Origin: a virus
DNA: 44,999 bases
Strand: one strand, 5' to 3'
IMG/VR virus record: IMGVR_UViG_3300030688_000053
In this document: positions 4,578 through 44,999 of the stretch, one piece after another
Numbering within the stretch: position 1 is the first letter of the stretch
How the letters are laid out: each line of letters begins with the position of its first letter
Program-made: the position numbers and the translations under genes
Notes under the pieces: generated by a model
Told to the model about the DNA's origin: nothing
Database searches by the model: none
Seen by the model: the letters and a program-made list of their open reading frames with translations, nothing else

Positions 4578-5333
4578 TCAGACCGCGTTGCCGCGCTGCG
4601 ATTCCCAGTCGAATTTAACCCACTTGCCGCCCTCGCGCAGCCGGTCATAACTGCGGTCGCCCAGAAAGTCCTTCATCTCAGATGCCGTCAAATTCGTCAG
4701 CAAGATCATCGGCATCTGGTCGCGGTAGCGCTTGTCGATAATGTCAAACAGGCTGACCTGTTCGGACTCTGTCCCGTATTGCACGCCCACTTCGTCCAGG
4801 ATCAGCAGATCAACGCTTGCCAGCGCGCGGAGCACCTGGCTTTCTGATTTCTCAGAGTTCCGGCGCCATGTGTCGCGGATCATGCGCACCGCGTCGATTG
4901 CGCTGATGTACATTGCCGTCCGCTCTGGCATGATCGCCGACGCAATGGCAATCGCAAGGTGGCTTTTCCCGGTGCCGGGCTTGCCAGAGAAAACCATCGT
5001 CGTGCCATCCTTGGCATGGGTAGAGAAGTTGTGCGCAAACTCCATGGCGATTGAGCGCGCCTTATCCTTGGCGTCTGTCTCAGTCCGGTAGCCTGCGAAA
5101 TCCTTGCCGCGAAACCTCAAGGGAATTCCGGCCTGGTTCAAGCGATGCTCGAGCGCGCGCTGGCGCTCAATCGCGTCCCGTTGCTTTTTCTCTGCGGCAT
5201 TGCTTTCGCGCTCCGCGCTGGTGCATTCCGGGCAGTTCATCCAAACGACTCGCTTGAGCAGTTTGATTCCCTTGGCAATGTACGCGCCATGGGTCTCGCA
5301 ATTCCGTGCTTCCGTTTCAGTGAATGCATCCAT
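4578..5333 (-). CDS. DnaC/IstB-like AAA+ helicase loader
   Basis: Walker A is GKPGTGKSHLAIAIA and Walker B is LLILDEVG. The gene lies immediately downstream of the replication initiator. Confidence 0.85.
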   Translation of the reverse strand: MDAFTETEARNCETHGAYIAKGIKLLKRVVWMNCPECTSAERESNAAEKKQRDAIERQRALEHRLNQAGIPLRFRGKDFAGYRTETDAKDKARSIAMEFAHNFSTHAKDGTTMVFSGKPGTGKSHLAIAIASAIMPERTAMYISAIDAVRMIRDTWRRNSEKSESQVLRALASVDLLILDEVGVQYGTESEQVSLFDIIDKRYRDQMPMILLTNLTASEMKDFLGDRSYDRLREGGKWVKFDWESQRGNAV

Positions 5334-6168
5334 CGTCGCCTATCCCTTCTCCGTAGTCTTTTTGGTCAAAACCGTTGTGCCGCGAGATCGATGTTTTGGG
5401 TGAGCCGCGCGCCAGGTGCTGACCGCCCAGCTTTGCCCAGTCCCCCGAGATCGCATTACGCAGGGCAGCATCCCAATCGGCATACACGTAGCCGTTGGCC
5501 TTGGCCTTGTCGATGAACGATGAAAAATGCCGGTCGAGGTTCTGCACGTTGTTCTTCACCGCCCAAGCATTGACCTGCTCAGAAACACAGAAACCGTCAG
5601 GCAGTGGAATCTTTTGCGATTTTCGCGTGCGCTTCGGCTTGTCCGAAGCTGGCGCTTGCGCCGTACTTCCAAGCAATCCGGTATCAGGAATCAGTGAATC
5701 AGGAATCAGTGAATCAGGGTGTTCTTTAACTGTTAAAGAATTGTTAGTCGACTGTTTTTGATCTGTTAATTCTTTGTCTTTCAACGAAACGGAGCCTGTC
5801 GAATATCCGTTTTTTCCGCGTTCGTGAATCCACAATTTACCGTCTTCATCCGGCATATCGCCGTCCTTCTCGGTGCCGTGTGGTGTCTGGTGCTTTGAGA
5901 ATCCGGCTACCTGGATGACCTTCACGCCGGCCGACTCGTAGCGCCGGATGAAGCCGTCATTGCAAAGGGATTGCAGCATGCCATCAACATCGGCAGATCG
6001 GTCATACGGAAGCGCCTGGACAGCGATACGGCTTGGCCTATCCTCAAGTCGTCCCTCTCGGTCAGCCAGCATCCAAAGGTAAATGAACAGCAGGCGCGTC
6101 AATGGCGCCAAGGATGCGAGATCCTCATTCACCATGATTGCCGGCTTGATGTTGCGTGCGCGTGCCAT
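5317..6168 (-). CDS. Replication initiator / replisome organiser (lambda O-like role)
   Basis: The N-terminal winged-helix-like region reads MARARNIKPAIMVNEDLASL...LFIYLWMLADREGRLE. The gene lies upstream of the DnaC-like loader. It contains internal iteron-like DNA repeats that encode PDSLIPDSLIPD. Confidence 0.7.
   Translation of the reverse strand: MARARNIKPAIMVNEDLASLAPLTRLLFIYLWMLADREGRLEDRPSRIAVQALPYDRSADVDGMLQSLCNDGFIRRYESAGVKVIQVAGFSKHQTPHGTEKDGDMPDEDGKLWIHERGKNGYSTGSVSLKDKELTDQKQSTNNSLTVKEHPDSLIPDSLIPDTGLLGSTAQAPASDKPKRTRKSQKIPLPDGFCVSEQVNAWAVKNNVQNLDRHFSSFIDKAKANGYVYADWDAALRNAISGDWAKLGGQHLARGSPKTSISRHNGFDQKDYGEGIGDDGCIH
5686..5719. repeat. Iteron-like tandem repeats (2.3 x 15 bp aggaatcagtgaatc; four GAATCAG cores)
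   Basis: Read directly from the sequence. GAATCAG occurs at 5688, 5696, 5703 and 5711. A 9-bp perfect inverted repeat follows (ttctttaac t gttaaagaa, 5722-5740), then an AT-rich stretch. Confidence 0.6.
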
Positions 6169-8829: not shown

Positions 8830-9035
8830 GGCGCTTCCTGATCGAGAGTCGGCAGCCCTGCAATGGCAATCAGGCCGACGAGGTTGAAAATCAGCCCGGC
8901 GAAGAACCAGGCGAACGCCGACCGGTGCTTACCGCTGGCGACGATGGCGGAAAAGATCGCGCAGCCAAAGACGGCAACAAACAGCCATGCCGCGCCGATC
9001 AGAGCAAACGAGTTGAGATAGTCGCTGAATGTCAT
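8826..9035 (-). CDS. Small membrane protein (69 aa, about 2 TM segments)
   Basis: Two hydrophobic segments: ALIGAAWLFVAVFGCAIFSAIVA and FAWFFAGLIFNLVGLIAIAGL. Confidence 0.65.
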   Translation of the reverse strand: MTFSDYLNSFALIGAAWLFVAVFGCAIFSAIVASGKHRSAFAWFFAGLIFNLVGLIAIAGLPTLDQEAP

Positions 9036-9244
9036 GATGGCTTGCCCCGGCGCGATGGTTTTTTCTGCGGCACCACGCTGGCGTGCAACTCCATCAGCTT
9101 ATTACCGACCTCATAACGAGGCTGAGTAGTTACGCCACTATAAAGCTGGCTGATGGCAGATTGACCGCAGCCGCAATATGCAGCTACTACCATTTGAGTT
9201 TTTCCAGCCGCGAAGATTTCCGAGAGAATTGCTGTCCAGTCCAT
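9032..9244 (-). CDS. Cro-like HTH DNA-binding protein, first gene of the leftward arm
   Basis: HTH-like segment KTQMVVAAYCGCGQSAISQLYSG. The protein is 70 aa. The gene lies directly downstream of the leftward promoter, with AGGAAATAAA before the ATG. Confidence 0.65.
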   Translation of the reverse strand: MDWTAILSEIFAAGKTQMVVAAYCGCGQSAISQLYSGVTTQPRYEVGNKLMELHASVVPQKKPSRRGKPS

Positions 9245-9276
9245 TTTATTTCCTATAGTTGTCTTTGATGTTGACC

Positions 9277-9305
9277 ATTATTATCAATCATTAGATAATA
9301 GTCAA
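9277..9305 (-). promoter_or_regulatory. Leftward early promoter (TTGACT-N17-AATAAT) overlapping an imperfect inverted repeat (candidate operator)
   Basis: The minus strand reads TTGACT ATTATCTAATGATTGAT AATAAT. On the plus strand, ttgaccattat (9271-9281) is inverted relative to ataatagtcaa (9295-9305) with one mismatch. Confidence 0.6.
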
Positions 9306-9371: not shown

Positions 9372-9400
9372 TTGACTTGGTTTATTCGATGACTGATAAT
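9372..9400 (+). promoter_or_regulatory. Rightward early promoter (TTGACT-N17-GATAAT)
   Basis: TTGACT at 9372-9377, a 17-nt spacer, then GATAAT at 9395-9400. It lies about 50 nt upstream of GGAGAGCGAAA-ATG of the first rightward gene. Confidence 0.65.
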
Positions 9401-9452
9401 TCAATCACACCAAACGCAAAGCACCGCGCAACTAGATAGATGGAGAGCGAAA

Positions 9453-10190
9453 ATGATTCAAGCAAAAATTCAAATCAAGAACCGTTTTACCAATGCAGTA
9501 ATGTTCGAATGCGCCGCGCCCGATGGCATTGAAAGTGGACTGCATCTGCGACATGCCCTTGAGCAGGCAGTAATTGCCAAAACCAACCTGCGCGGTGCCG
9601 ACCTGCGCAGTGCCGACCTGCGCGGTGCCGACCTGCGCAGTGCCGACCTGCGCGGTGCCTACCTGCTCGGTGCCGACCTGGGCAGTGCCGACCTGCGCGG
9701 TGCCTACCTGCGCGGTGCCTACCTGCTCGGTGCCGACCTGGGCAGTGCCGACCTGCGCGGTGCCTACCTGGGCGGTGCCGACCTGGGCAGTGCCGACCTG
9801 GGCGGTGCCAACCTGGGCGGTGCTGATGACAAGCCGCTGCCTCGCGCTACGCCTGAACAAGCAATCGAAAATCTTGATCGCGTTCGTGCTGTAATTCTGG
9901 AAAATCAGGAACGTCTTGAAATGAATCACTGGCATGGCAACAGTGATTGGAAAGATCGCACATGCGCCGAAGAAGCTGTATGCGGAACAACACATTGCCT
10001 AGCCGGATGGTTACAAGTATGCACCACAGAGCCAGCATTGCGCGAAATTGATTCTGAGTTGGCGGGCATATTATGCGCGCCGGTTGCTTCGAAGATGTTT
10101 TATCGCGGTGCGACTGAGGTTCTTGATTGGCTTGAACAACGTAAATATGTGCAAGAGGCAATGTCTGTTGCGCCTAAAACACTGGCCTAG
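9453..10190 (+). CDS. Pentapeptide-repeat protein with a Cys/His-containing C-terminal domain
   Basis: 16 consecutive (N/D/Y)L(R/G/L)(G/S)A pentapeptides at aa 45-124. The C-terminal domain contains NHWHGNSDW and CGTTHCLAGW. Confidence 0.9.
   Translation: MIQAKIQIKNRFTNAVMFECAAPDGIESGLHLRHALEQAVIAKTNLRGADLRSADLRGADLRSADLRGAYLLGADLGSADLRGAYLRGAYLLGADLGSADLRGAYLGGADLGSADLGGANLGGADDKPLPRATPEQAIENLDRVRAVILENQERLEMNHWHGNSDWKDRTCAEEAVCGTTHCLAGWLQVCTTEPALREIDSELAGILCAPVASKMFYRGATEVLDWLEQRKYVQEAMSVAPKTLA
9585..9824 (+). repeat. Tandem array of 16 x 15 bp (consensus gacctgcgcggtgcc), in frame inside the pentapeptide gene
   Basis: I enumerated the units one by one. Each differs from the consensus by 3 nt or fewer, and the units are contiguous with no spacers. 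Confidence 0.95.
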
Positions 10191-10208: not shown

Positions 10209-10685
10209 ATGATTATCTATTTGAAATGTGGAACTGAGATTCAGATTGATGAAATTGATCAGCATCTGTTCATTGGAAGAACCTGGGCCTACAAGAAATC
10301 GCGAACTACTCGATACGTCGCGAGAGTAGCAACTGTTGATGGCAAGTCAAAAGAATGGAAGCTGCATCGCTTAATCATGTCGGCAAAAGATGGTGAATTT
10401 GTCGACCACATAAACGGCGACACGCGGGATAACCGGAGAGTAAATCTTCGTATCGCGACTGCAACACAAAGTGCGCAAAACACTGCGAAGAAATCGAATA
10501 GCAAATCTCGATTTAAGGGCGTGACGAAGACGAATAAATCTTATCGTGTCCGGATAAGGCATGACGGAAAGAGGCTGCAAATAGGCGAATTTAAAGATGA
10601 AGTCGAAGCGGCATATTTTTACGACCTTGCAAGTTTGCGGCTTCATGGTGATTTTGGGAAAAGAAATTTTCTCCCTTTGGTTTAG
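10209..10685 (+). CDS. HNH homing endonuclease with a C-terminal AP2-type DNA-binding domain
   Basis: HRLIMSAKDGEFVDHINGDTRDNRRVNL is an HNH_3-type motif. SRFKGVT...YRVRIRHDGKRLQIGEF...EAAYFYD is AP2-like. Confidence 0.85.
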   Translation: MIIYLKCGTEIQIDEIDQHLFIGRTWAYKKSRTTRYVARVATVDGKSKEWKLHRLIMSAKDGEFVDHINGDTRDNRRVNLRIATATQSAQNTAKKSNSKSRFKGVTKTNKSYRVRIRHDGKRLQIGEFKDEVEAAYFYDLASLRLHGDFGKRNFLPLV

Positions 10686-11632: not shown

Positions 11633-11815
11633 ATGAAGCCCTACACCCGATTTCTCCTGCGCCGTATGTGGAGCAGATTTGTGCGACCTATAGTCGAAGT
11701 ATGCGCGGTCTGCTTCATAATTTTTTACGGCTTGGGTGCCGTTCAAGGCATGGATGGACGCGCCCAGCATGAAGCTGAAAAACTAATGCGCGATCGCATC
11801 GCAAATATCAAATAA
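11633..11815 (+). CDS. Hypothetical membrane protein (60 aa)
   Basis: Track ORF. The hydrophobic segment is VCAVCFIIFYGLGAV. Its ATG overlaps the preceding stop. Confidence 0.5.
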   Translation: MKPYTRFLLRRMWSRFVRPIVEVCAVCFIIFYGLGAVQGMDGRAQHEAEKLMRDRIANIK

Positions 11816-11835
11816 CTCTACCAAAAGGAAATAAC

Positions 11836-13026
11836 ATGGATATCGCAGAAACCACGAAGCCGAAGAAAACAAAGCTGGAGCCGAAGCCATCGGTTGAGCT
11901 GACTCTGCCCCAACGCGCCGCTGTTGCGCTGGATACTTCGGCGCATGAGAAGGCGTTGCGCGCCCTGGTTGAGACTTCTGCCTCCATCAAGGAAGTGAAG
12001 AACAAAGACGGTCGGGAAGAATGCCACGCAGCATACATGCGCCTCAAGAATGCTCGCGTTGCCATCGGCCACAAGGCGACGGCGGCGACAGAGGATGCCA
12101 AGGCATTCACCAAAGCCGTCAAGGAAGAACAGGACCGGCTGATCGGTATTGCATCCGAAGAAGAGACGCGCCTGCAAACCCTGCGTGATGCATGGGATGC
12201 TGCCATTGAGGAAGAGAAGGCCGCCAAGATCGCCGCAGAGCGCGAACGCATTGCCGGCATCCAAAAGGATATCCAAGGTATCCGCGACGTCGTTATCGGC
12301 GTGGCCGGTAAAGATTCGGCACAGATCGAGGTCGCACGTATGGCCGTCAATTCGATTGATGGCGCCGACGAACCGCGCTTCGATGAATTCACGGCTGAAG
12401 CTTCAAAGGCCATCGCCGAAACATCTGCCAAGCTGACAGAAATGTTCGATGCGGCAGTCGAGGCAGAAGAAAAAGCCGCCAAGGATGCCGCTGACCGGGA
12501 AGCTGAAGCCATGCGCCTTGCAGATGAACGCGCCGAACTTGACCGCCGGAAGAAAGAGCAGGACGAAGCCGCAGAAGTCGAGCGCAAAAAGCTGGCCGAC
12601 GAACGCGCCAAGCAAGACAAGGAGCGCGAAGAGGCAGACGCAAAGGCCGCCGCCCTGCGCAAGGTCGAAGAAGGCAAACTGGAAGAACAGCGCAAAGAAC
12701 TGGCTGCACAATTGGCCTCTCTGGATGCCGCCCGTAAGGTCCAGGAAGAAGCCGCGCGCGTCGAGCAGGAAAAGCGTGAAAAAGATGCTAAGGACGCCGC
12801 TGACGCCGAGGCCAAGCGCGTGAAAGATGCAGCCGATGAAGCACTGGCCCAAGAGCAGGCCGCCGCGCAGGCCAAGAAAGAAGCCGAGGACGAGCAGCAC
12901 ATTGCAGAAGTGCACGCTGATATTGCTGCTGATCTCATTTTGCATAAATATCAAGAGATTGATTTAAATTCCTTGATTGATTTGATCCGCACCGGTAAGA
13001 TAACAAATCTATCAATCAACTACTAA
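11836..13026 (+). CDS. Highly charged Ala/Glu/Lys-rich coiled-coil protein upstream of the annealase
   Basis: 396-aa ORF with AAAGGAAATAAC before the ATG. A long low-complexity segment reads EAEEKAAKDAADREAEAMRLADERAELDRRKKEQDEAAEVERKK.... Confidence 0.75.
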   Translation: MDIAETTKPKKTKLEPKPSVELTLPQRAAVALDTSAHEKALRALVETSASIKEVKNKDGREECHAAYMRLKNARVAIGHKATAATEDAKAFTKAVKEEQDRLIGIASEEETRLQTLRDAWDAAIEEEKAAKIAAERERIAGIQKDIQGIRDVVIGVAGKDSAQIEVARMAVNSIDGADEPRFDEFTAEASKAIAETSAKLTEMFDAAVEAEEKAAKDAADREAEAMRLADERAELDRRKKEQDEAAEVERKKLADERAKQDKEREEADAKAAALRKVEEGKLEEQRKELAAQLASLDAARKVQEEAARVEQEKREKDAKDAADAEAKRVKDAADEALAQEQAAAQAKKEAEDEQHIAEVHADIAADLILHKYQEIDLNSLIDLIRTGKITNLSINY

Positions 13027-14537: not shown

Positions 14538-14948
14538 ATGAAGACGAAACAAAAAACATGCAGGTATTGCCAGCAGCCAGCGCAGCTTCTTCGTTACCGT
14601 GGCGCTGGCTACCCTTACCGCAGCGATTACGGCCCGACTTGGGTATGCGTACCGTGTCAAGCATGGGTAGGCTGCCATGACGGCACCACGAACGCGCTGG
14701 GCGGCTTGGCGAACGCTGAATTGCGTGGATGGAAAGTCAAGGCTCATGCCGCTTTTGATCCGTTGTGGAAGGCGAAGATAGCGCGCGACGGATGTTCAAA
14801 GTCCAAGGCGCGGAAGGCCGGGTATAGGTGGCTGTCAGAACAGTTGTCGATACCCTACGAAAAGACGCACATCGGCTACATGAGCATCGATGAATGCAAG
14901 ATGGTGGTTTCAATTTGTTCTGCAATACAACCGAAAAATAGAGGATAA
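14538..14948 (+). CDS. Zinc-finger phage protein (DUF3268-like)
   Basis: CRYCQQPA...WVCVPCQAWVGCH forms two CxxC pairs. LRGWKVKAHAAFDPLW follows. The family assignment is from memory. Confidence 0.55.
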   Translation: MKTKQKTCRYCQQPAQLLRYRGAGYPYRSDYGPTWVCVPCQAWVGCHDGTTNALGGLANAELRGWKVKAHAAFDPLWKAKIARDGCSKSKARKAGYRWLSEQLSIPYEKTHIGYMSIDECKMVVSICSAIQPKNRG

Positions 14949-15798: not shown

Positions 15799-16293
15799 AT
15801 GGGAATATCCAAAGAAAAACTCGTATTTTTAAAATCCGCATCCTTATCAAAAGATAGTCAATGTATAAATTGGCCGTATATCCTTAATAAAGACGGATAT
15901 GGATCTGCAATGCATAACAAAATTCGAGGCGCCCATCGAATTGTTTATTATTTAGCTCATGGGAATATCGCAGATGAAATGTGCGTTATGCATTCATGCG
16001 ATAACCCAGCTTGTATAAATATACAACATCTTTCCCTTGGAACAGCAAAGGAAAACCATTCTGATATGTATAAGAAAAATAGATGCGTATTCCAAAAGGG
16101 TGGAATAAATTATAAAGAATTTCGCGGCGAAAGCCATGGTTTGTCAAAATTGACGGAAGATGAAGTTAGAAAAATTAGAATTTCCCGGGAAAAAGGTGGA
16201 TTTTCCAATCGTGAAATTGCAAAAATATTAAATATGGGGCGTCAAACAATAAATGACGTCATTTCAAGGAAAACATGGGCTCATGTAAGTTAA
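15799..16293 (+). CDS. HNH homing endonuclease (HNH_3 type) with a C-terminal HTH, in an AT-rich island
   Basis: GYGSAMHNKIRGAHRIVYYLAHG...MHSCDNPACINIQHLSLGTAKENHSD, then GFSNREIAKILNMGRQTINDVISRKTW. One sampled 60-nt line inside the gene is about 30 % GC, against about 58 % in the flanking gene. Confidence 0.85.
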   Translation: MGISKEKLVFLKSASLSKDSQCINWPYILNKDGYGSAMHNKIRGAHRIVYYLAHGNIADEMCVMHSCDNPACINIQHLSLGTAKENHSDMYKKNRCVFQKGGINYKEFRGESHGLSKLTEDEVRKIRISREKGGFSNREIAKILNMGRQTINDVISRKTWAHVS

Positions 16294-44532: not shown

Positions 44533-44999
44533 CTAGCCCCCGTCCGGCAGGCCGCCGATGATGTTCACCGTCTCATCGTCTTTCAGCTCAGTCGATTTCC
44601 CGCTGTCGCTGTTCAGGTGCCAGCGCTTCGGGTCCATCCGGGCAGAATGCCACTTGCGCGCGTCAATGCGCATCTGCGCGTGCTGCAGCATCGCTCGCAT
44701 GTAGACCGCGACCAGCTTATTTTCCCCCGCTTTCAGGGCATTCCCGACCCTTACGGTCCAGTCAGGCGTCCATGGATTATCGGCAATTTCGATTACCTCA
44801 TCTCCTTGGATGGATGCCCGGGTAAGGATGGCGCGCGCGTAATGCTCCGAAAGTCCGAATAAAACATGGCCTTCCTCCACGTCCGTGGAAGCATCCGCCC
44901 ATCTGAAAAAGGTTTGTATTGTTGGAAGTCTGACAACATCAGATTCGAGAACCTGGCGCAGGCTTTCTCCCTGAGTGATGCGATCACATACCTCAAGCC
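44533..44999 (-). CDS. terS: Terminase small subunit, C-terminal part (N-terminal part continues at 1..245 after the junction)
   Basis: Track ORF 44533..44880 contains RIDARKWHSARMDPKRW, a motif typical of small terminases. The reading frame stays open to 44999 and continues in 128..245. Confidence 0.8.
   Translation of the reverse strand, partial: LEVCDRITQGESLRQVLESDVVRLPTIQTFFRWADASTDVEEGHVLFGLSEHYARAILTRASIQGDEVIEIADNPWTPDWTVRVGNALKAGENKLVAVYMRAMLQHAQMRIDARKWHSARMDPKRWHLNSDSGKSTELKDDETVNIIGGLPDGG
44873..44999. repeat. Exact duplicate of 1..127
   Basis: See the feature at 1..127. Confidence 0.95.

Follow-up and report, generated by a model that had tools for sequence, protein, structure and literature searches.

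An ATG-started open reading frame (ORF) of 245 amino acids (AA) at 9453..10190 (+) encodes a pentapeptide-repeat protein (PRP) in the IMG/VR virus record IMGVR_UViG_3300030688_000053, a stretch of 44,999 nucleotides that is called the window here. Its sequence is as given in an original prediction that was made from the DNA letters alone. The protein is predicted to consist of three parts, namely an N-terminal cap (AA 1-44), a right-handed beta-helix of 16 pentapeptide units and an all-alpha domain of about 110 AA with conserved Cys and His residues. The usual annotation of phage PRPs is putative gyrase inhibitor or DNA mimic, and the original prediction likewise proposed a DNA mimic. However, the function of this protein is best approached through its C-terminal domain rather than through DNA mimicry.

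The assignment to the pentapeptide-repeat family is clear from the match to Pfam PF00805 Pentapeptide (E 2.7e-28, 97.6 bits against a cut-off of 20.2). A full-length AlphaFold2 model based on 77 homologues reached a predicted local distance difference test (pLDDT) score of 84 and contains a cap, a beta-helix and a helical domain. Between AA 48 and 120, a strand residue recurs at every fifth position, which is the signature of the right-handed quadrilateral beta-helix of PRPs, and AA 134-239 form the all-alpha domain. The pLDDT is low (43-47) at AA 93-104, where the homologues are gapped. In a Foldseek search with this model, only PRP structures were found, with top probabilities of up to 1.0 and with QnrB1, MfpA, NleL and SopA among the neighbours. 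The beta-helix protein proposed originally, for which structure prediction had been suggested as a check, thus agrees with both the Pfam match and the model.

The C-terminal domain was confidently modelled on its own (pLDDT 91.5, predicted template modelling score (pTM) 0.85). A search with AA 125-245 identified 187 relatives at E-values below 1e-3 with 55-77% identity, the 120 best listed having E-values of 7e-38 or better. Nearly all of them are metagenomic, and they have the cap, a variable array and the C-terminal domain in common. Searching a profile of the C-terminal domain against 1.84 billion representatives yielded 261 clusters. Conservation was assessed in 143 representatives, obtained by clustering the relatives at 50% identity, in which H161 (94%), C177 (95%), H181 (95%), C182 (96%), A184 (94%) and G185 (97%) are the same in almost all sequences and M157, W160 and F216 in 90% each. 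All residues of the resulting signature (M157, W160, H161, C177, H181, C182, A184, G185 and W186) are present in the window protein. The motifs NHWHGNSDW and CGTTHCLAGW pointed out in the original prediction are both found in the protein, and the conservation of H161, C177, H181 and C182 supports the Cys/His-containing domain described there, but C171 and C190, which had also been highlighted, are unconserved among the representatives.

In the deep relatives, the same domain is fused to pentapeptides (1-31 units there), to Cys-rich CxxC-type repeats (e.g. CSDCSRC), to GDISGL, GNAWVSG (Pfam Bactofilin) or AKIGGDL repeats or to GGRAVV-type repeats (Pfam YdcK-solenoid or hexapeptide), or it occurs repeat-free. 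Some relatives carry the repeats C-terminal to the Cys/His domain instead of N-terminal to it. The C-terminal domain is the conserved element that defines the family, and the repeat module is interchangeable. The original prediction had treated the domain as an appendage; the domain does exist, but its conservation across the relatives identifies it as the core of the protein. What was under-weighted is a Cys/His domain, confidently folded in the model, that phages appear to mount on interchangeable solenoid repeats.

Among these fusions, one repeat type is unusual. In L035 (5632-6354), L036 (5722-6324) and L040 (4490-5128), and also in P0032, P0048, P0125 and P0138, the C-terminal domain lies behind long Cys-rich three-residue repeats (CTDCTGCKGC..., CSDCSRC...), which have no matching Pfam model, and such relatives have a different N-terminal cap (MRYESxKTAKGNIGVS...). 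Two long matches of the deep search, P0194 and P0249, were discarded as spurious since the motif is missing.

The domain itself is without a known relative. Compared with the PDB by Foldseek, it gave nothing below E=1 (best E=4), and the matches to NiSOD, Dps and cyclin are insignificant helical bundles. A sequence profile search of the PDB returned only a chance mini-intein match (E 0.26), and Pfam, NCBIfam and PADLOC gave no match; the family is partly covered by phrog_31265, phrog_889 and phrog_30739. In minimal members, the motif collapses to WHCGTSHC, with H-C and H-C three residues apart, and in many members acidic residues (CAEE, TPEEE) precede it. In the model, C182 lies at the N-terminus of helix 183-190. 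The H...C-x3-H-C pattern points to a metal site, and the domain probably holds a metal via its H/C/H/C residues. Analogies of the motif to WhiB-like proteins, zinc-binding anti-sigma (ZAS) factors and the NiSOD hook were dropped because the spacing differs and no fold match exists.

In contrast to the C-terminal domain, the repeat array is the hypervariable part of the protein. Tandem Repeats Finder detected a single array (9586-9823, period 15, 15.9 copies, 88% matches, zero indels, score 350), which in frame corresponds to 16 units of 15 bp, each with 0-3 mismatches to GACCTGCGCGGTGCC. This confirms the unit count and the limit of 3 nt from the consensus that had been reported originally. 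The two 45-bp blocks described there (9660-9704 and 9720-9764) are indeed identical but belong to a 60-bp duplication (9660-9719 and 9720-9779, one mismatch), and 60 bp equal 20 AA or one coil of the beta-helix. The longest exact repeat within the array is 65 bp. Codon usage is near-uniform, with CTG for Leu in 16/16 units and GCC for Ala in 15/16. The differences between the units are nearly all non-synonymous and affect almost only the outward-facing positions D/Y/N, R/G/L and G/S, whereas the inward-facing Ala and Leu are invariant. An antisense ORF of 187 AA with TAQVG repeats (9432-9995, -) is open across the array, as is one in a Variovorax prophage described below; it is a by-product of the repeats and no gene.

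Exactly this 245-AA protein is encoded on 23 contigs of JGI and ENA assemblies, so it is no artefact of a single assembly. At 90% identity, its cluster has six members of 245, 245, 235, 230, 225 and 200 AA, which corresponds to 16, 16, 14, 13, 12 and 7 units, with 99-100% protein identity outside the array. The flanks were compared in the fetched DNA of the 16-, 14-, 12- and 7-unit alleles: the 14-, 12- and 7-unit contigs show 0 mismatches to the window over up to 3 kb per side, and a single flank mismatch was found in two of four 16-unit loci. The shorter arrays differ from the 16-unit array by clean whole-unit deletions of 30, 60 and 135 bp between identical units. The 14-, 12- and 7-unit alleles were each found in at least two assemblies, the 13-unit allele on one contig. 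The same 16-unit array was recovered from both JGI and ENA assemblies, and the k141_ contig names together with a 127-bp terminal overlap suggest that the final assembler k was above the 65 bp of the longest internal repeat. Therefore, the 16-unit allele should be correctly assembled.

A precedent for such changes is found in the P22-like phages L and ST64T, which are >99.9% identical. They differ at only two points, one of them the loss of 15 bp, and thereby of one pentapeptide, in orf232 of the early left operon (bioRxiv 10.1101/2020.10.05.325894). Across 30+ loci carrying relatives of the window gene, each array uses one Leu and one Ala codon, with a unit identity of 0.71-0.97, and the codon choice differs among loci (CTG or CTC; GCC, GCG or GCT). 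These one-codon arrays with locus-specific codons indicate concerted evolution. The unit number ranges from 1 to 41 among the relatives, with 41 reached in IMG/VR, and from 7 to 16 in the phage studied here. A preferred unit number modulo 4, as expected from a fixed geometry of cap and C-terminal domain, was not detected (p=0.23, n=45, crude anchors). Exact-pattern scans of IMG/VR with the array-flanking DNA returned nothing, and neither did a wobble-tolerant pattern in the JGI metagenome collection, although the exact-protein look-up does return JGI contigs. Taken together, recent expansion and length polymorphism of the array through slippage, which had been raised as a possibility together with a comparison of repeat numbers among related genomes, are well supported by the alleles and the phage L/ST64T precedent, pending read-level proof that excludes assembly collapse.

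The 15-bp unit GACCTGCGCGGTGCC is also present in PRP genes of unrelated Salmonella P22-like, Edwardsiella and Bordetella phages, with 84-91% DNA identity over about 110-230 bp (window 9586-9800). The protein domains flanking the repeats in these genes are non-homologous to those of the window protein, and no INPHARED phage resembles the window at the DNA level outside the repeat array. Either convergent codon choice or spreading of the array as a cassette could account for this common unit.

Table 1. Coordinates of the PRP gene, its parts and the features next to it in the window.
Feature	Position	Strand	Basis
Coding sequence, 245-AA pentapeptide-repeat / Cys-His-domain protein	9453..10190	+	ORF, Pfam, identical protein on 23 contigs
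N-terminal cap, AA 1-44, predicted beta-hairpin and helix (IK.R.T..V.FE ... A.E.AV), common to most pentapeptide-bearing family members	9453..9584	+	AlphaFold2 strands 4-10 and 16-22, helix 28-41, pLDDT >90; alignment
16 tandem 15-bp units = 16 pentapeptides (AA 45-124), about 4 coils of predicted quadrilateral beta-helix; hypervariable part	9585..9824	+	Tandem Repeats Finder, in-frame reading, shorter alleles (14, 12 and 7 units) on contigs that are otherwise identical
Conserved all-alpha Cys/His domain, AA ~132-240 (~110 AA)	9846..10172	+	AlphaFold2 pLDDT 91.5, pTM 0.85; 187 close and 261 deep relatives
Signature M157-x2-W160-H161 ... C177-G-T-x-H181-C182-x-A184-G185-W186	9921..10010	+	Conservation in 143 representatives
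Shine-Dalgarno-like GGAGAG	9442..9447	+	Sequence read; GGAG (9442-9445) ends 7 nt before ATG
Sigma-70-like promoter TTGACT-N17-GATAAT of the rightward operon	9372..9400	+	Promoter scan; -10 hexamer within second operator-like arm 9382-9400
Near-palindromic promoter block; leftward sigma-70-like TTGACT-17-AATAAT (9305->9277) overlaps mirrored + strand site (9271-9299)	9271..9305	.	Scan and sequence
Operator-like palindrome ATTATCAATCATTAGATAA, inverted partner of 9382-9400	9280..9298	.	Inverted repeat, 19 nt, 79% complementary
70-AA helix-turn-helix (HTH) regulator, Cro/repressor-like, first gene of the divergent leftward operon	9032..9244	-	phrog_6831 transcriptional regulator E 2.2e-14; phrog_6223 transcriptional repressor E 5e-10
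Next gene downstream, HNH (AP2-type) endonuclease; unconserved beside homologues	10209..10685	+	phrog_99, E 3.9e-34

The features surrounding the gene are listed in Table 1. As originally predicted, the PRP gene is the first rightward gene and lies directly after a near-consensus promoter, which is borne out by the promoter sequence and the divergent layout. In the scanned 3-kb region, the number of promoter-like sites equals that expected by shuffling (3 found against 3.0), and all three lie inside the 208-bp divergent intergenic region. The two 19-nt inverted-repeat arms, which overlap the -10 hexamers, look like paired operators for the adjacent HTH protein. A CI-type repressor gene was not found between the divergent promoters, and no integrase was found among the window ORFs tested.

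On the minus strand, the arm running leftward from 9244 encodes the HTH regulator, a DNA methyltransferase, NinB, NinG, an O-like initiator, a DnaC-like loader and a NinI-like phosphatase. On the plus strand, the arm starting at 9453 encodes the PRP, the HNH endonuclease, small ORFs, a 396-AA charged protein, Erf, an exonuclease and a RusA-like protein. This layout is lambdoid, with the PRP gene at the head of a PL-like (recombination) operon. The HNH endonuclease gene directly after the PRP gene is probably co-transcribed with it. A second HNH endonuclease gene (15799-16293) follows the RusA-like gene in the same early operon, and both may be mobile insertions. The host of the phage is probably a member of the Burkholderiales.

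Several further observations concern the window as a whole. Its first and last 127 bases are identical (1-127 and 44873-44999), which indicates a circular (or circularly permuted) assembly and a phage genome that is complete at about 44.87 kb; assemblies of this genome from many samples begin at different points. A perfect tandem duplication of ATCAGGAATCAGTGA (5683-5712) lies inside the O-like replication initiator gene (5317-6168, -) and is a candidate origin iteron by analogy with lambdoid phages. The 396-AA protein upstream of Erf (11836-13026, +) is rich in Glu, Lys and Ala and matches phrog_21091; an antisense ORF of 376 AA (11808-12938, -) is open there because of the low-complexity sequence of this gene and is probably spurious. 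A DUF3268 zinc-finger-containing protein (14538-14948, Pfam E 3.7e-29) is encoded between the exonuclease and the RusA-like gene. Rfam and tRNA scans gave no matches.

The taxonomic distribution of the relatives shows that the family is almost confined to phages. The close subfamily was found on 32 IMG/VR contigs, compared to only 3 of 185,579 species-representative genomes in GTDB, all of which are Comamonadaceae with prophage-like loci; the genomic contexts place the family in the early or accessory regions of phages and prophages. In L009, the homologue likewise comes first after a divergent gap, with a YqaJ exonuclease gene downstream of it. In the prophage of the cultured Comamonadaceae strain Variovorax fucosicus J22R193 (L050; NZ_JASZYU010000004.1, ~104-115 kb), the homologue lies between a CI-like gene upstream and an ERF-like gene downstream; its C-terminal domain is 69% identical, and it has at least 15 units. 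Early accessory regions of mosaic composition carry the gene at or close to their start, and no partner gene is fixed: across 30+ loci, no neighbouring gene was found in more than 3. This variable context indicates a stand-alone accessory module of phage early regions.

More distant phage proteins combine similar parts differently. PRPs were detected by tblastn in 234 records of the phage collection. In the Ralstonia T7-like phage RsoP1IDN, the relative gp4 is encoded in the early region, and gp4 and its relatives (phrog_31265) have the same N-terminal cap, a PRP array and a shorter C-terminal domain (MGVWHNACGTAHCRAGW). Compared to the window protein, gp4 lacks the W..RTCAEE insert, ends in a different C-terminal tail and has about 24 units, the best aligned segment being ~43% identical. 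The P22-like PRP (ST64T orf232 and its phage L homologue) resembles the window gene in belonging to a PL-type early operon, where it lies between ral and gene 17, the order in phage L being N, ral, PRP, gene 17, cIII, kil, erf, abc1 and abc2. Its 15-bp unit is almost identical (88-91% DNA identity over ~200 bp) and shows the one-unit indel between near-identical phages mentioned above. However, only the repeats are common to both proteins; the N- and C-terminal domains are unrelated.

The original prediction considered the protein a DNA mimic acting on gyrase or against restriction, and this part is not supported. The window protein has the repeat type (PF00805) and the predicted right-handed quadrilateral beta-helix of Qnr, MfpA, McbG and AlbG, but its scores lie far below the curated cut-offs: 20.3 bits against 240 for Qnr (NF033086), 15-27 bits against 425-500 for the Qnr subfamily models and 30 bits against 360 for MfpA (NF000349). 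By these models, it is a generic PRP outside the topoisomerase-protection families. In addition, a 110-AA Cys/His domain takes the place of the C-terminal dimerisation helix, the helix surface is near-neutral as judged by sequence, and the unit number is unstable. Qnr- and MfpA-type proteins have about 8 or more coils per monomer and degenerate DNA repeats, whereas the window protein has about 4 coils and homogenised DNA repeats. For the phage and plasmid DNA-mimic anti-restriction proteins Ocr, ArdA and Arn, which are likewise early-expressed and accessory, a functional analogy is possible; however, neither family and PDB sequence searches nor Foldseek revealed similarity to them, and the charge of the window protein (net -8, isoelectric point (pI) 5.2) is far lower.

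Four other explanations were weighed against a host-interaction factor with a conserved Cys/His core. According to one of them, the pentapeptide helix mimics B-DNA and blocks gyrase, topoisomerase IV, type I restriction-modification or BREX, with the C-terminal domain as an accessory, for example for dimerisation. The fold and its neighbours QnrB1 and MfpA would fit, as would early expression, the position of the P22-like PRP next to the anti-restriction gene ral and a mild acidity, which is seen in the whole protein, on face 3 of the helix and in the family (median -0.25 charge per unit). Nevertheless, we consider this unlikely, and specific B-DNA mimicry towards gyrase or restriction enzymes is not favoured. 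Apart from the scores far below the Qnr and MfpA cut-offs, the repeats carry almost no net charge (10 Asp, 8 Arg and 1 Lys, about -1 by composition), and most of the negative charge (-7) is contributed by the C-terminal domain and not by the helix. Four coils span only about 2 nm, and array length seems unconstrained, unlike in a fitted mimic, because 7-16-unit alleles coexist and the family spans 1-41 units. Furthermore, other solenoid types replace the array in relatives while the C-terminal domain stays. Finally, the PRPs McbG and QnrB give no relief from BREX, and DNA mimicry alone is insufficient against it (PMC7261183). An anti-defence role as such is plausible from the genomic position alone.

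The C-terminal domain could alternatively be an enzyme that uses the Cys/His pair at the helix start, with the solenoid as a substrate-targeting module by analogy with NleL and SopA. These type III effectors, which are structural neighbours via the beta-helix, also combine a PRP solenoid with a following conserved-Cys domain; C182 is essentially invariant at the N-terminus of its helix, H181, H161 and C177 are conserved too, and acidic residues precede the motif in many members. However, NleL and SopA act on eukaryotic hosts, the domain in the window is not HECT-like, and this small all-alpha domain matches neither a hydrolase or transferase fold in the PDB by Foldseek nor an enzyme family in Pfam or NCBIfam. 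The spacing in WHCGTSHC also fits a metal site more readily than a pair of catalytic residues. Catalysis seems quite improbable. A role in the early programme of the phage itself, as an accessory to the Erf/exonuclease recombination module or to replication, appears about equally improbable. The gene does stand first in an operon that includes Erf, exonuclease and RusA-like genes, and lies upstream of YqaJ in L009 and of the ERF-like gene in the Variovorax prophage, but the missing conserved neighbour, T7-like early regions that carry relatives without an Erf/exonuclease module, and a fast turnover of domains and repeats, as is usual in accessory genes and not in core machinery, argue against it. 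Lastly, the array could have arisen by misassembly, or it could be a DNA-level element (iterons or a recombination hotspot, for example) in a chance open frame. The perfect head-to-tail repeat with a GC content of 74%, compared to 46-49% in the flanks, the varying length among assemblies and the open antisense frame would be compatible with this. It is largely refuted and extremely improbable in view of the 16-unit array in JGI and ENA assemblies, a longest exact repeat below the probable assembler k, the fixed inward-facing Ala and Leu with varying outward positions, relatives that retain the peptide pattern with different codons, the strong PF00805 match and a separate candidate iteron pair in the O-like gene.

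The explanation that we prefer, with a probability of roughly 45%, is that the PRP acts as a stand-alone early host-interaction factor, possibly in counter-defence, with the Cys/His domain as its core and the beta-helix as a fast-evolving stalk. The protein would bind a host component by protein-protein interaction, either for takeover or for counter-defence. The Cys/His domain would be the effector and would probably hold a metal, and the beta-helix could serve as a rigid stalk or as a secondary binding surface of variable length. When laid out from the sequence, the four faces of the helix comprise one acidic face (face 3), one with a Tyr/Leu patch and two that are balanced in D and R, and the acidic and Tyr/Leu faces may bind protein. 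Slippage of the array would yield length alleles, which may tune the activity or help to evade host recognition.

Several points weigh against this preferred explanation. Both metal binding and the protein-binding role are inferred from conservation alone, and the literature searched contains no functional study of any phage PRP and no characterised homologue. Many arrays of relatives are acidic, and a nucleic-acid-mimic contribution is therefore possible for the family. The position as first gene is not general, since most IMG/VR loci have the gene within a series of small genes on one strand, as judged by crude ORF calling. Every length variant is shorter than the commonest, 16-unit allele, and the shorter ones could be assembly collapses. 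A more far-reaching version of the host-interaction explanation is doubtful: the WH...CGTxHC domain may be an undescribed metal-binding effector fold on interchangeable solenoid stalks, with the slippage-prone array as a contingency locus that tunes or diversifies counter-defence or takeover within one phage population.

For the biology of phage PRPs, these results mean that at least one large subfamily is defined not by its repeats but by a conserved Cys/His domain without a known fold or family. The repeat module can be swapped between solenoid types, and its length may differ between members of one clonal phage population. If real, this length variation would exemplify contingency-type variation in an early gene of a phage. 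Experiments are thereby redirected from the helix to the C-terminal domain, and the prophage copy in the cultured Variovorax fucosicus J22R193 provides an experimentally tractable system for them.

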